From the NCBI GenBank assembly GCA_022822205.1, contig JAJECC010000047.1:6628-70627 (forward strand): DNA of 64,000 nucleotides, read 5' to 3'. The notes below the pieces were generated by a model that had not been told where the DNA came from, made no database searches, and saw only the letters and a program-made list of their open reading frames with translations. Each line of letters starts with the position of its first letter. The stretch's first letter is position 1. Of the stretch, positions 46 through 22,635 are shown in pieces. Origin of the DNA: Rhodospirillales bacterium (GTDB lineage Bacteria; Pseudomonadota; Alphaproteobacteria; Rhodospirillales; UBA2165). The translations under genes were made by a program, and so were the position numbers.

Positions 46-224
46 CCGTACCTCCTTCGCTGGCGAAGAGACTGTAGTACAAGGACGGCGTGGGTGGAAC
101 GGCGGCCGGTTACCGCCCCGGCAATGCCCGGCCGCCGTTGGCGCGGATAGTATCTTCGCCTTTACGCGCCGGATTCGCGTGATTAGGCTTTTGCCCGGAT
201 TGTCTAGTGATTGGGAGGTGGTTG

Positions 225-1346
225 ATGCCCGACATGCCGTCCATGGAATCCCTGCTCGGCGTCGAGACCGTCGATGACCTGCGGGGCTTGGCCCGCGACG
301 ACCTTCTCGACGCCCACGCCCGGGCTTGGGATTGGATCGCCGGCCCCGGCACGTGGCTTACCGGCGCCGAGCGCCTTGCCGTTGTGCTCGAAGTCCGGCA
401 AGCGGCAAAATGCGATTTTTGCCAAGCCCGCAAAGATGCGCTTTCACCCCTGGCCGTCGAAGGAGAGCATGACCATCTCGGTGAGCTGGACGATGCGTGG
501 GTCGAGGCGATCCACCGAGTTGCAACGGACTCGGGCCGCCTGTCGGCATCATGGGTGGACGGACTGATTGCCGACGGGTTGAGCGACGGAGCCTATATCG
601 AAATCGTCGGCTTGACCGCAATGACCAAGATGATGGATGCCTTTGCCTGGGCCGCCGATGTCGAGCCGCCCCTCCTGCCCCAACCCAGGGACGGTGCGGC
701 AAGCGGTTACCGCCCGCCCGGTGCGAAGAAATCCGACGCCTGGGTTGCCGTCGTCAAGCTGGAGGATGTCAGTGAAACCGACGGACCGCTCTACGGCGCG
801 ACCGCCGGCGGCGTCCATCAGGCCCTGTCCCTGGTACCTGACAGCAAGCGGGCGTTCTGGGCGTTAGGCGAACCGCACTACATCCCCATGGACGAAATCC
901 GCAATACGGACACCCGGGTGCGCGCGATCAGCCGAGCCCAGATCGAGATTTTGGCGGGCAGGACCTCGGCGCTTCACCAGTGCATGTACTGAACGACCTC
1001 GCACGCGATGATGCTCCGTGCGAGCGTCCAGGACACCGGCGCTGAATTCGACCTGACCTCTCTGTCCGGCGACGACGCCAAGGGCACGGTGCCGCACCAG
1101 AACCTATTGCTCGACTTCGCCGAAGCAGTGGTTCTCCGGGACCGGGACACCGCAGCGGCGTTGCGGCCCAAATTAATCGAGGCACTGGGACCCGCGGGTT
1201 ATCTCGACGCCTGCGCGGTTGTCGCCGGTTTCCACGGATTTACGCGCATCGCCGATGCATCCGGCGTACCTCTTGATGAACGCTATCTCGGCGACGCAGA
1301 GGATGTGAAGGCGCAGACAGGGGTGCGGGAATACGACCCGCGTTAG
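225..1346 (+). CDS. AhpD/carboxymuconolactone-decarboxylase-like alkylhydroperoxidase-related selenoprotein (about 373 aa, Sec at codon 256); merges ORFs 207..992 and 1008..1346
   Basis: Both ORFs are in the same frame, separated only by TGA 990-992; read-through gives SALHQCMY-U-TTSHAMMLR, matching the AhpD SxxNxCxYCxxxH motif; hairpin immediately 3' of the TGA; GGGAGG 213-218 before ATG 225; second CDFC motif near the N-terminus. Confidence 0.85.
993..1027 (+). promoter_or_regulatory. Bacterial SECIS-like hairpin
   Basis: CTCGCACG 998-1005 pairs perfectly with CGTGCGAG 1017-1024; GA 1007-1008 pairs with TC 1015-1016; loop UGAUGC 1009-1014 starts 16 nt after the UGA with G at position 2; ACG 993-995 pairs with CGT 1025-1027. 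Confidence 0.7.
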
Positions 1347-11087: not shown

Positions 11088-12110
11088 TTAGGCGTTTATT
11101 TCGTCCTCAAGATTCGTGAGCCGGGTTATGAATTCGCCAAATTCCGGTGGGGCGTCGAAAATTATCCCATTGTCGATCATTGTCTTGTAGTCCCGCTCAA
11201 GCATGTTTCGCAGGTCGTCGCGGGGCGTCAAATGCAATGATCCAGGCCGGGCTGCCTTATAGTTCGCCCAACCTGACCGGAAGAATACTTGCTTGTGTTC
11301 GGCGACCGCAGTCAGCAAATCGATGTTTTCCAACGCCTCAGTTTTGATAGCAGTCGCCGCCATCATGACCAGATCGTAGTAGTGCCTTGATTGCCGGTCG
11401 GCATCGGCCTTCGCCTCGGGCCGATGGAATTCCGCGTGAAGGATCGTTGCCTTCTCCCAGAACGTCCGTTCGGCTCTCAGGACTGTGACTGGCGTATCGG
11501 GCTTCTCGAATTGATCCGGGAATGCTTCCGCCGCATAAGGTATGACTGAGCGCCTATCAGACGGCCAGATTTCGCCACGCGCTCCGAACTCCAGACGTAC
11601 TGCCGGCTGAAGGTAATTCGATCCGTCAATCGAATTCGTCGCTATGGGGTAGTGAAAGAGTATGGTCGCCGGATCATCTTCAGATAACTTTAGCGCCCAG
11701 CCATCTTCACCCAAAAGCCCAGCCATAATTCCCTGGAGTTTGGGCATCAATACCTTCTCCACGTTTTCATTCAACGCGGCGGCAATTTGTTTCAGTAGAC
11801 GTGCCCGCTCGTTGCCGGAAAGGTCTTCATTCATCGGGTCCCTTTCCGCCGAAAAACCGAAATGGCTCCGATCTATCGAGAGGTCGATGTCCTCCGAGAA
11901 TCGTTTTATCACGTCGTAGACCTTCGAAAGGGAAGTTCCACCCTTGAAAATAAGGTGTATGCCGGGATCAAGATCGGCAAATAGCCGTCTAAGCACCCAA
12001 CACACCCAAAAATCTTTTTCGATGATTTCGGCTCTAAGGTTTTTTGCCGCCGAAACCTCGTTGAATAGATCGCGGCGATCATCCAGGGACCACCCCGCGA
12101 CCTCATCCAC
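11088..12110 (-). CDS. AbiEii/AbiGii-family nucleotidyltransferase toxin (type IV TA)
   Basis: IIEKDFWVCWVL, FKGGTSLSK, RFSEDIDL, ERTFWEKATILH, SRHYYDL; 8-nt overlap with upstream gene. Confidence 0.88.
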   Translation of the reverse strand: MDEVAGWSLDDRRDLFNEVSAAKNLRAEIIEKDFWVCWVLRRLFADLDPGIHLIFKGGTSLSKVYDVIKRFSEDIDLSIDRSHFGFSAERDPMNEDLSGNERARLLKQIAAALNENVEKVLMPKLQGIMAGLLGEDGWALKLSEDDPATILFHYPIATNSIDGSNYLQPAVRLEFGARGEIWPSDRRSVIPYAAEAFPDQFEKPDTPVTVLRAERTFWEKATILHAEFHRPEAKADADRQSRHYYDLVMMAATAIKTEALENIDLLTAVAEHKQVFFRSGWANYKAARPGSLHLTPRDDLRNMLERDYKTMIDNGIIFDAPPEFGEFITRLTNLEDEINA

Positions 12111-12735
12111 TTGCTGCGCCTTGGGTAGGAGCCGAGTCCCGGGCGTTCAGCCGATCAAAGAACCTTGTCTGAGCCCAGGATGGAACATTTCTAAGCAAGA
12201 GACCTGTAACCTGCCGGGAGTGGGCAATCCGCAGAATTCTGTCAGCCACCTGATCGTCGAAACCATCTCGCCCAACGAAATTCAAAGCCTGCCGAGCAAA
12301 TTGAACCCACCTATCCTTGTTCCCGGAACCGACACTTCTCGTATGTTGAAATACGAATTGGCGATTACCGATTTGCAACTTCTTTGACGGGCCATCCGTA
12401 AGATAGACGGGCTTTGCGGATAGTTGGGTTGTCAATCCAAGAGCGTTGGCGGCTTGCGCATCGGATACATACAATTTGCTATTTGTTTTCCTCGCAATAG
12501 CCATAGCAACGCTGACATCGGAAGGGGAGAGTACGCCGAGACGCTTACTGACCTTCGGGAAATCATAGATCCCACGTGCAATGCGACGAATCTTGCCTGC
12601 CCGAACAAGGCGCGACAAAGCCTGATCCACGGCCGCGCGACTGCCGAAATCCAAAAAGTCTTTTGGAGTGAAGACCCACCCGCGGCCCTTGCCGCGAACC
12701 CGGCGAAGAATTCTATCGGTAACGGTGGAACGCAT
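12103..12735 (-). CDS. DUF6088/AbiEi-type antitoxin (wHTH transcriptional regulator)
   Basis: VFTPKDFLDFGSRAAVDQALSRL...RRIARGIYDFP; AANALGLTTQ; VYLTDG; start re-set to ATG 12735 after AAGGAAG. Confidence 0.82.
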   Translation of the reverse strand: MRSTVTDRILRRVRGKGRGWVFTPKDFLDFGSRAAVDQALSRLVRAGKIRRIARGIYDFPKVSKRLGVLSPSDVSVAMAIARKTNSKLYVSDAQAANALGLTTQLSAKPVYLTDGPSKKLQIGNRQFVFQHTRSVGSGNKDRWVQFARQALNFVGRDGFDDQVADRILRIAHSRQVTGLLLRNVPSWAQTRFFDRLNARDSAPTQGAASG

Positions 12736-12751
12736 GATGCTTCCTTCTTTA

Positions 12752-12788
12752 ATAATGTCAGATAATAACATTATTTTTCTGACATTAT
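12752..12788. promoter_or_regulatory. Inverted repeat, likely antitoxin autoregulation operator
   Basis: ATAATGTCAGA 12752-12762 and TCTGACATTAT 12778-12788 (perfect 11-bp arms, 15-nt spacer) 17 nt upstream of the antitoxin start. Confidence 0.6.
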
Positions 12789-13006
12789 ACAAAAAAAATT
12801 TCCTCGGGAAATTATCGTAACTGTTTGATATACTTTCATTAATTATCTAATTTTTTCTAAAAAAAACAAAAATATAATCAAATGATATAGAAGGCACTTT
12901 GGAAAGCCGTTAAGGATCGATTGAGAAAATCGAGAACTGAAGCTCACGCTTTACCGATTCCGCCAAAGAGACTAGTTTTTCTGCCTCTTTAGGCACAAAG
13001 TGCACC

Positions 13007-21691: not shown

Positions 21692-21745
21692 GTTCAGGAC
21701 TCGATTGAGACACCGTAGGAGTGGTGCGGCGATATGGACAGCGCT

Positions 21746-21862
21746 GGGTGAGGGGGAATTTCTTTATCACCCCCACACTCTTCTTCACCCCCACCCCAAC
21801 CCGCCCCCTTCGAGGGGGAGGGGAATTTTTCCTTAAGCCTCTCCGTCAGGGAGGGAGAGGCG
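21746..21862. repeat. REP-like GC-rich palindromic element(s) between convergent genes
   Basis: CCCCACCCCAACCCGCCCCCT-TCG-AGGGGGAGGG core (hairpin 21804-21818) plus flanking GGGTGA/TCACCC and CCTCTCC/GGAGAGG arms. Confidence 0.45.
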
Positions 21863-21864
21863 GC

Positions 21865-22512
21865 TCAGCCGAGGGCCTCGAGATCGGCCAGGGTCTTTTC
21901 GGGCTCGGGCCGGGTCGTGTAGTTCGGGTGAATATCGGCCGCCCGGACGACGCCGGAGCCGTCGATCACCAGCCGCGAAGGTATGGGCAGCGTCCAGCTG
22001 TCGTCGCCGTTGGTTCCCGGAAGGTCGAGACCGAAACCCTCGTAAATCTTCTTCACTTCGTCCGGCACCTGGAACTTGATGCCGAGTTCGGCGGCATAGT
22101 TGTTGCCGGCGTCGGTGAGGATGTCGAAGGTCAGGTCGTGCTTCTCGACCATGGCCTGGGTCTTTTCGGCCAGCTGGGGGCAGAGCGCCAGCAAGGTCGC
22201 GCCGGCGGCTTCGATCTGGTCCTGTACTTCCTGCAAAGCATACAGCTCCGCATTACAGTAGGGTCACCATTCCCCCCGATAAACGGTCAGGACCACCGGG
22301 CCCTTGGCCAGCAGATCGGCCGAATTCACCGTCTCGCCCCGCGAATTGGGCAGCGAGAAAGCCGGCAGGGTGTCGCCGGCCTGGATGCAGGTATCGAGGA
22401 TACCGGATTCCGCCAGTTCCTTGGTCGCGGCGCCCATGACGGCCCGAACCTCTTCCGGCATCCGCTTGGCGCCGGCCTCGCGGATGGCGGCAAGTTTTTC
22501 TTCTAAGCTCAT
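21865..22512 (-). CDS. Peroxiredoxin-like (AhpC/TSA-redoxin) selenoprotein, 215 aa, U83-x-x-C86; merges ORFs 22264..22512 and 21865..22236
   Basis: Same frame across TGA 22266-22264: VYRGEW-U-PYCNAELYALQ, equivalent to the family RGxWCPYC motif; LPAFSLPN upstream and LPIPSRLVIDGSG downstream complete the fold. Confidence 0.9.
22225..22263 (-). promoter_or_regulatory. Bacterial SECIS-like hairpin
   Basis: mRNA after UGA: UGCGGAGC (+12..+19) pairs with GCUUUGCA (+25..+32), including two G-U pairs; loop UGUAU with G at position 2, 19 nt from the UGA. Confidence 0.62.
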
Positions 22513-22635
22513 TTAATTCTCCACGTTTCACTCAGGTCTTGATCCTGAGACTGTCTCCACTTTAGAGCAGGGATCGAGCCTTGGCGATAACGTTCCAGGC
22601 GGTGCGTTCCGCCGCATCCGGTCCGCGGAGCCGGG

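Follow-up and report, generated by a model that had tools for sequence, protein, structure and literature searches.

Does the minus strand between 22512 and 21865 of this 64-kb stretch of DNA (the whole of which is called the window here) carry two short genes, one broken gene, or a single gene in which UGA is read as selenocysteine (Sec)? Translation of the window gives a single frame of 215 residues plus a terminal stop from 22512 to 21865, and its sole internal stop is a TGA at codon 83. The codons TAT CGG GGG GAA TGG TGA CCC TAC TGT read YRGEW-U-PYC. A first-pass annotation of this DNA had proposed that reading, and direct translation reproduced the peptide at the same minus-strand codons, together with a frame that stays open to 21865 without another internal stop. 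The ORF listing breaks the frame, as that annotation had also remarked, into an 82-aa ORF (22264..22512) and a 123-aa ORF (21865..22236), the latter from a spurious TTG start. Taken together, the evidence makes it highly probable that 21865..22512 is a genuine Sec-encoding gene, one functional unit in which the UGA at codon 83 is decoded via SelB and tRNA-Sec. The features of the predicted gene are listed here.

21865..22512, minus strand: complete predicted selenoprotein coding sequence, with ATG at 22512..22510, Sec at codon 83 and a terminal TGA at 21867..21865
22266..22264, minus strand: codon 83, the in-frame UGA predicted to be read as Sec (U83), first position of the U-P-Y-C redox motif
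22257..22255, minus strand: TGT codon of Cys86, second residue of UxxC, aligned with the peroxidatic Cys of BCP/PrxQ
22519..22522, minus strand: Shine-Dalgarno-like GGAG, 6 nt 5' of the ATG, read by eye from the sequence

The Sec-spanning tryptic peptide of the product would be GEW-U-PYCNAELYALQEVQDQIEAAGATLLALCPQLAEK.

To which family does the protein belong? Profile searches used the 215-residue product with Cys put in place of the UGA. Matches were found to Pfam AhpC-TSA (PF00578; 3.7e-25, 88.7 bits vs a gathering threshold of 26) and Redoxin (PF08534; 5.2e-20, 72.2 bits vs 26.6), and no NCBIfam model, including every peroxiredoxin equivalog, scored above its cutoff. A search of 5.8 billion proteins returned two classes of relative. 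The first consists of full-length proteins of ~215 aa with 40-58% identity. The second consists of proteins of 122-123 aa whose match, at 63-98% identity, is confined to the C-terminal 57% of the query; many homologs have been shortened to this length by gene callers at the identical spot. In the full-length Cys relatives, RGxWCPYC stands in the same alignment columns as YRGEW-U-PYC. The UGA therefore occupies the first Cys of the CxxC motif, as first proposed, and the Cys homologs in the AhpC/TSA alignment do have the Cys that had been expected at codon 83. Cys86 is invariant across all homologs aligned. The Cys forms are named 'peroxiredoxin-like family protein' at NCBI, a family that we take to be CDD cd02970 PRX_like2 (CxxC). 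They resemble the window protein over its full length (215-225 residues, at the identity given above) and share its N-terminal two-helix extension and RGxWCPYC. They differ in having Cys at 83, variable residues after the motif (NIELQAL, NLELKAY and others), and DNA there that lacks the hairpin found downstream of the UGA.

How widely is the UGA shared? A scan of GTDB contigs, with one genome per species, found at least 573 related stretches, and the best 80 were examined. These 80 come from Rhodospirillales (94-98% identical to the window protein), other Alphaproteobacteria, Gamma- and Betaproteobacteria, and one Gemmatimonadota MAG. Most loci were retrieved by the peptide pattern CNAELYAL, so that conservation of this peptide is partly a selection effect. 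The TGA and the codon-level freeze described below are unconstrained by that pattern, and both are also present in four loci retrieved by the C-terminal fragment only (L001-L004) and in one retrieved by the database protein P0001 (L085). The homologous codon is TGA in 83 of 84 loci and TGC in the remaining one. After duplicates were removed, TGA was found at this codon in 83/83 distinct Sec-clade genes, with identities to the window protein of 44-100% and no other in-frame stops. The same layout of an 82-aa ORF, a TGA and a 122-123-aa ORF in one frame is seen in L001, L003 and L004, and the gene neighbourhoods of L003 and L004 are unrelated. One ortholog (L065; JABMOR010000145.1, 2.6 kb) is binned in a 'Nitrosopumilus sp.' MAG though it is 57% identical to proteobacterial genes; a contig this short has most likely been assigned to the bin in error.

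Substitution patterns are alike on the two sides of the UGA. Upstream of it, pairwise differences at codon positions 1/2/3 average 0.33/0.27/0.61, and downstream 0.34/0.23/0.57, ordered 3 > 1 > 2 on both sides; in the window's own lineage, pN/pS is 0.09 before the UGA and 0.22 after it. The stretch after the UGA is thus translated and under selection, which in practice excludes a pseudogene or an assembly error. A nonsense pseudogene, or a sequencing error, would require a recent mutation or miscall of a Cys (TGC/TGT) or Trp (TGG) codon. Such an origin would fit the two ORFs given by gene callers and GenBank records, and also the fact that Sec machinery is not seen within the window, but it is scarcely credible when this TGA recurs in 83 distinct, independently assembled genes whose proteins are as little as 44-48% identical, without other stops or frameshifts, and when purifying selection persists after the TGA. 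An assembly error at 22264-22266, which the first-pass annotation had named as one of two results that would overturn its reading, is rejected on the same grounds, since 83 independent assemblies share the TGA.

What could direct Sec insertion at this codon? A SECIS-like hairpin lies shortly downstream.

22252..22232, minus strand: SECIS-like hairpin, with 5' arm 22252..22245 UGCGGAGC, loop 22244..22240 UGUAU and 3' arm 22239..22232 GCUUUGCA

The hairpin has 8 bp and covers nt 12-32 after the UGA, leaving an 11-nt spacer; its 21 nt lie inside the coding sequence and encode N-A-E-L-Y-A-L. The local minimum-free-energy fold is built around it, and the 21-mer by itself folds at -10.1 kcal/mol. 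As a single sequence the local fold is unremarkable (z = -1.46 vs shuffles), and the significance of the hairpin comes from comparison across genes. In 77 distinct 72-nt segments, the eight stem pairs show standard pairing in 96.8% of cells, and the variation seen is compatible with pairing (A-U/G-U, G-U/G-C). A covariation test on these segments found two-sided changes at 0 pairs and did not beat shuffles, a statistic that is uninformative because the hairpin is nearly invariant. RNAalifold favours a slightly different register, which makes the exact structure of the putative SECIS ambiguous, and Rfam at its gathering threshold gave no SECIS match in the window. Synonymous-site conservation and the contrast between Sec and Cys forms were therefore relied on. 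In the 83 genes, codons 88-93 are frozen at synonymous sites, as follows.

Ala88: GCA or GCG only
Glu89: GAG in 83/83
Leu90: CTG in 83/83
Ala92: GCT in 79/83
Leu93: TTG in 76/83

Residues that are equally conserved elsewhere in the gene have near-free codon use, with a normalised codon entropy of ~0.6-1.0. Energies computed for the fixed hairpin set the Sec forms apart from the Cys forms, with a median of -10.2 kcal/mol over the 83 Sec genes against a range of +7.4 to -2.7 for the equivalent segment of five Cys-form genes; of the two groups, only the Sec forms have a stable hairpin. The stem with a UGUAU loop first noticed 12-32 nt downstream is thus borne out by the local fold, by the synonymous freeze and by its absence from the Cys forms; its conservation and its restriction to Sec forms also speak against a pseudogene. 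The hairpin and the encoded NAELYAL are nearly invariant across Alpha-, Gamma- and Betaproteobacteria and Gemmatimonadota.

Going by the E. coli fdhF element, SelB-dependent decoding calls for just what the window hairpin offers, a spacer of 11 nt and an apical loop whose G-U lies ~24-25 nt from the UGA. The fdhF-type SECIS of Escherichia coli is likewise a hairpin within the coding sequence that begins 11 nt after the UGA, with its apical G-U at that distance from the U of the UGA. The window hairpin differs from it in sequence and has no obvious bulged U in the simple 8-bp register, and it stands as a predicted element only.

The fold bears on whether the two halves of the frame belong together. 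An AlphaFold2 model was made of P0004, a gap-free Cys homolog 56% identical to the window protein. In this model (pLDDT 96.8) a strand at 73-77 is followed by a helix at 84-95, and residue 83 would therefore cap the active-site helix as in thioredoxin-fold CxxC enzymes. The UxxC motif accordingly maps to the N-terminus of the first helix after a beta-strand, as in ResA/TlpA-like proteins, and residues 1-41 form an additional helical hairpin. Could the locus encode instead two polypeptides, one of 82 aa and, from a start of its own, a redoxin fragment of 123 aa? The TTG start of the 123-aa ORF and the separate entry of the two pieces in databases would agree with this. Such a split is extremely unlikely, however, as the break would fall between the strand and the active-site helix of one compact domain and would part the two redox-motif residues. 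The TTG sits within the 3' arm of the hairpin, and a Shine-Dalgarno sequence is not visible upstream of it. Moreover, the 27-nt spacing and the frame are invariant in all loci, as compared in L001, L003 and L004.

A single continuous product could also arise if the UGA stood for a standard amino acid, by reassignment or by read-through, be it Trp or Gly (codes 4/25) or Trp or Cys by a near-cognate tRNA. The database protein P0001 (L085 208-852), which has Trp at position 83, seems to speak for this, but its Trp is the TGA translated with genetic code 4 by the gene caller. It is an annotation artefact that hides a selenoprotein. The terminal stops of the 83 Sec-clade genes are TGA in 35, TAA in 27 and TAG in 21. 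UGA is therefore also an ordinary stop in these genomes, and it ends the window's own copy as well as many other window genes. In addition, homologs have Cys, not Trp or Gly, at position 83, and tRNA-Sec, selB and selD adjoin the gene in relatives. Reassignment is accordingly judged very unlikely, and decoding as Sec is the reading followed here.

Serine is found at position 83 as well. The closest 'full-length' relative, P0002 (L086 102-770), has TCA (Ser) in place of TGA, one base apart, and its hairpin is half-decayed, with two upper-stem mismatches and the peptide NAEVCAL. By its sequence, it looks like a Sec-to-Ser derivative in which an SxxC Prx-like motif would have been created. P0005 is a second Ser form among the protein relatives.

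Can the host decode Sec? Within the 64-kb window, ARAGORN found no tRNA genes, Rfam gave no tRNA-Sec match at the gathering threshold, and selA, selB, selC and selD were not found. Ten window ORFs of appropriate size were considered as SelA, SelB or SelD and rejected; they are UvrC, PgsA, MoeA, a histidine kinase, Tgt, QueA, KefC, AgcS, an amidohydrolase and formate-THF ligase. The ortholog is preceded by a tRNA-Sec gene (anticodon UCA), at a distance of 25-140 nt, in three Gamma-/Proteobacteria MAGs.

L074, 12-6345: selB, esterase, tRNA-Sec and the Prx-like gene, then an Ndh-SelD fusion on the opposite strand
L075, 38-3645: selB, esterase, tRNA-Sec and the Prx-like gene
L060, 2880-3642: tRNA-Sec directly upstream of the Prx-like ortholog

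The selB and esterase regions of L075 read as a single 860-aa ORF. The window itself holds another gene of the Sec type.

207..1346, plus strand: second predicted selenoprotein gene, AhpD-related, with motif C-M-Y-U-T, TGA at 990..992 and a hairpin at 995..1028

Here the same-frame ORFs 207..992 and 1008..1346 on the plus strand are joined by the TGA, in the context ALHQCMY-U-TTSH. Reading through it gives a product with an end-to-end match to NCBIfam NF041238 (428 bits vs a cutoff of 175, E = 2.9e-128), a model titled 'AhpD_rel_CFYUT, alkylhydroperoxidase-related (seleno)protein' (NCBIfam). The hairpin right after this UGA folds at -20.9 kcal/mol. Since the first-pass annotation counted the Prx-like gene as its second hidden selenoprotein, the AhpD-related gene is presumably its first. 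With two independent Sec-type genes in 64 kb, the host very likely decodes Sec; a host without Sec decoding, the other result that the first-pass annotation had said would overturn its reading, is very unlikely, given the second selenoprotein gene and the purifying selection after the UGA of the Prx-like gene. Generic scans of the window for TGA-joined ORFs give many chance matches at 63% GC. The TGA-joined pairs at 55816 and 52180 were considered as selenoproteins and rejected, being merely adjacent same-frame genes.

Is the family new? In the GOS selenoproteome, 'Prx-like 1' (pfam00578, UxxC) was represented by 225 Sec sequences and 2,740 Cys homologs (Zhang and Gladyshev, 2008; PMC2398784, Table 2). 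A 'Prx-like thiol:disulfide oxidoreductase' (PF00578, UxxC) has been listed as a high-confidence predicted family in earlier and later surveys (review PMC13188914). The signature PYCNAELYAL is present in two U-containing GOS sequences, JCVI_READ_1565530 and JCVI_READ_1091141146517, which are placed between the '#Prx-like 1' and '#Prx-like 2' headings of the supplement (PMC2398784). One GOS Prx-like 1 example reads ...VFRGHWUPYCNAELYALQEV...NGDESWTLPIPSR...DPDYTARPEP, and sequences of this kind are clear orthologs of the window gene. The GOS / Sargasso Sea sequences share with the window gene the Pfam family, UxxC and an extended signature, ...FRGHWUPYCNAELYALQE...NGDxSWTLPIPSR...DPDYTxRPEP, and nothing substantive differs; the copy in the window comes from a Rhodospirillales-like genome of 63% GC and is an ortholog of full length. 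Prx-like 1 of GOS is a broad grouping that also holds shorter, unrelated-looking UxxC sequences, and the window gene represents one subfamily of it. Judged by sequence, then, the window gene is a member of a catalogued selenoprotein family and not new, because the same HWUPYCNAELYAL signature occurs in the 2008 GOS 'Prx-like 1' set. The earlier statement that Prx-like/redoxin UxxC selenoproteins are a known class was correct, and the exact subfamily is in the GOS 2008 dataset. No member of this family appears to have been characterised biochemically.

What reaction might such an enzyme catalyse? The closest solved folds to the P0004 model are BCP/PrxQ (TM-score normalised to target 0.87-0.90) and ResA-type thiol-disulfide oxidoreductases, at 14-22% identity. 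BCP/PrxQ (PDB 5epf, 3hjp, 2cx3) has the same fold as the model, with Cys86 on the peroxidatic Cys. It differs from the window protein in sequence (18-21% identity) and in motif, which is RGxW-U-xxC for PxxxT/SxxC; the window protein also has an extra N-terminal helical hairpin of ~45 residues. Alignment to the BCP structure 2cx3 (FFPAAFSPVC vs VYRGEWCPYC) places Cys86 on the peroxidatic Cys and residue 83 on the Ser/Thr of PxxxT/SxxC. The canonical peroxiredoxin motif is thus altered to R79-G-x-W-U83-P-Y-C86, in which Pro is replaced by Arg, Thr by Sec, and the Cys alone is kept. Arg79, at the Pro position of PxxxTxxC, is invariant in the homolog alignment. Since both the Pro and the Thr of PxxxTxxC are replaced, the protein is named 'Prx-like' and not peroxiredoxin. 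R180 lies in a 'PSRLVID' segment similar to the 'RxxFxID' segment of peroxiredoxins; it is invariant in the Sec clade and merely the majority residue in Cys forms.

The product would be a monomer-sized oxidoreductase of 215 residues with a thioredoxin/peroxiredoxin fold, in which UGA 83 would be decoded by a bacterial SelB/tRNA-Sec system as directed by the 21-nt hairpin that starts 11 nt downstream inside the coding sequence. Sec83 would cap the active-site helix at its N-terminal end, where a thioredoxin-type CxxC has its nucleophile. In peroxiredoxin terms, Sec83 would take the Thr/Ser position of PxxxT/SxxC and Cys86 the position of the peroxidatic Cys. The most likely course, as far as the motif indicates, has three steps. 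The Sec83 selenolate would attack an oxidised substrate (a disulfide, a sulfenic acid or a hydroperoxide), a Sec83-Cys86 selenenylsulfide would then form, and a thioredoxin- or glutathione-type reductant would re-reduce it. Selenium incorporation, the substrate and the reductant are all what we infer from the sequence. The enzyme could be a disulfide/sulfenate reductase that follows ResA-like logic, or a peroxidase that uses the Prx pocket with Cys86.

The latter option can be put more sharply. Selenoenzymes that have been characterised normally use Sec as their catalytic nucleophile. The protein may be a genuine selenoprotein and still act as a Prx-type peroxidase in which Cys86 is peroxidatic and Sec83 serves as activator or resolving residue. 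For this speak the alignment of Cys86 with the peroxidatic Cys of BCP and of residue 83 with the Thr/Ser of PxxxT/SxxC, the natural Ser83 (TCA) derivative that recreates an SxxC Prx-like motif, and the place of BCP/PrxQ among the closest folds. The Arg in 'PSRLVID' resembles the Prx catalytic Arg motif, which by motif inference points the same way. On the other hand, the Pro of PxxxTxxC is replaced by the invariant Arg79, ResA-type CxxC oxidoreductases are equally near in fold, and the usual role of Sec is that of the primary nucleophile. A Cys86 peroxidase is on balance an unlikely reading, if one to be taken seriously, and attack by Sec83 is preferred. Gene context gives no clue to the substrate, because no neighbour is conserved across the family; a search for conserved neighbours found no universal partner, with AspRS upstream in ~20 loci and an acyl-CoA synthetase downstream in ~14.

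The practical point concerns annotation. Standard gene calling splits the Prx-like selenoprotein gene, and no NCBIfam model covers the family. In public MAG records it is found as an 82-aa 'hypothetical protein' (e.g. MDE0537231.1) and a 122-123-aa 'redoxin domain-containing protein/peroxiredoxin'. The family is widespread, as the number of related stretches in the GTDB contigs attests. A dedicated model, combined with the highly conserved 21-nt hairpin, would recover many hidden selenoproteins, and would also offer a simple way to recognise uncultured Proteobacteria that have the Sec trait. Of minor interest are also the unusual invariance of the SECIS-like hairpin across phyla, the Sec-to-Ser derivative, and the fact that some Gammaproteobacteria have the gene beside selC, selB and selD. 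The invariance of the hairpin and NAELYAL, the adjacency to tRNA-Sec, selB and selD in some genomes and the want of a conserved metabolic partner invite a speculation, improbable as it is, that the gene belongs to a small mobile 'Sec island' and moves with the Sec machinery. On that view its product might be the core selenoprotein by which aerobic marine and soil Proteobacteria keep the Sec trait, and its task might lie in the handling of selenium itself and not in general peroxide or disulfide reduction.

Some minor observations concern the surroundings of the gene. Its neighbours in the window are a 2OG-Fe(II) oxygenase gene upstream and a convergent DUF427 gene downstream. A promoter and terminator scan found no sigma-70-like promoter 5' of the Prx-like gene. 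The 123-nt gap that follows the oxygenase gene contains, ~25 nt before the ribosome-binding site, a short inverted repeat, CTCAGG-ATCAAGA-CCTGAG (22540-22565, minus strand), which could be a small terminator or operator. The gap between the convergent Prx-like and DUF427 genes (21700-21864) is rich in G-runs and C-runs, with a hairpin of the CCCCTCCCCC/GGGGGCGGG type, and the scan placed a terminator-like site on the plus strand at 21805-21823 inside it. Its counterpart in L001 holds a GYD-domain gene and IS fragments. Elsewhere in the window, a low-GC island lies between high-GC genes at 11088-12792 on the minus strand. It carries an AbiEii nucleotidyltransferase toxin gene (PF08843, 2.4e-39) and a DUF6088/AbiEi_4 antitoxin-like gene, a type IV toxin-antitoxin or abortive-infection pair that was likely acquired horizontally.
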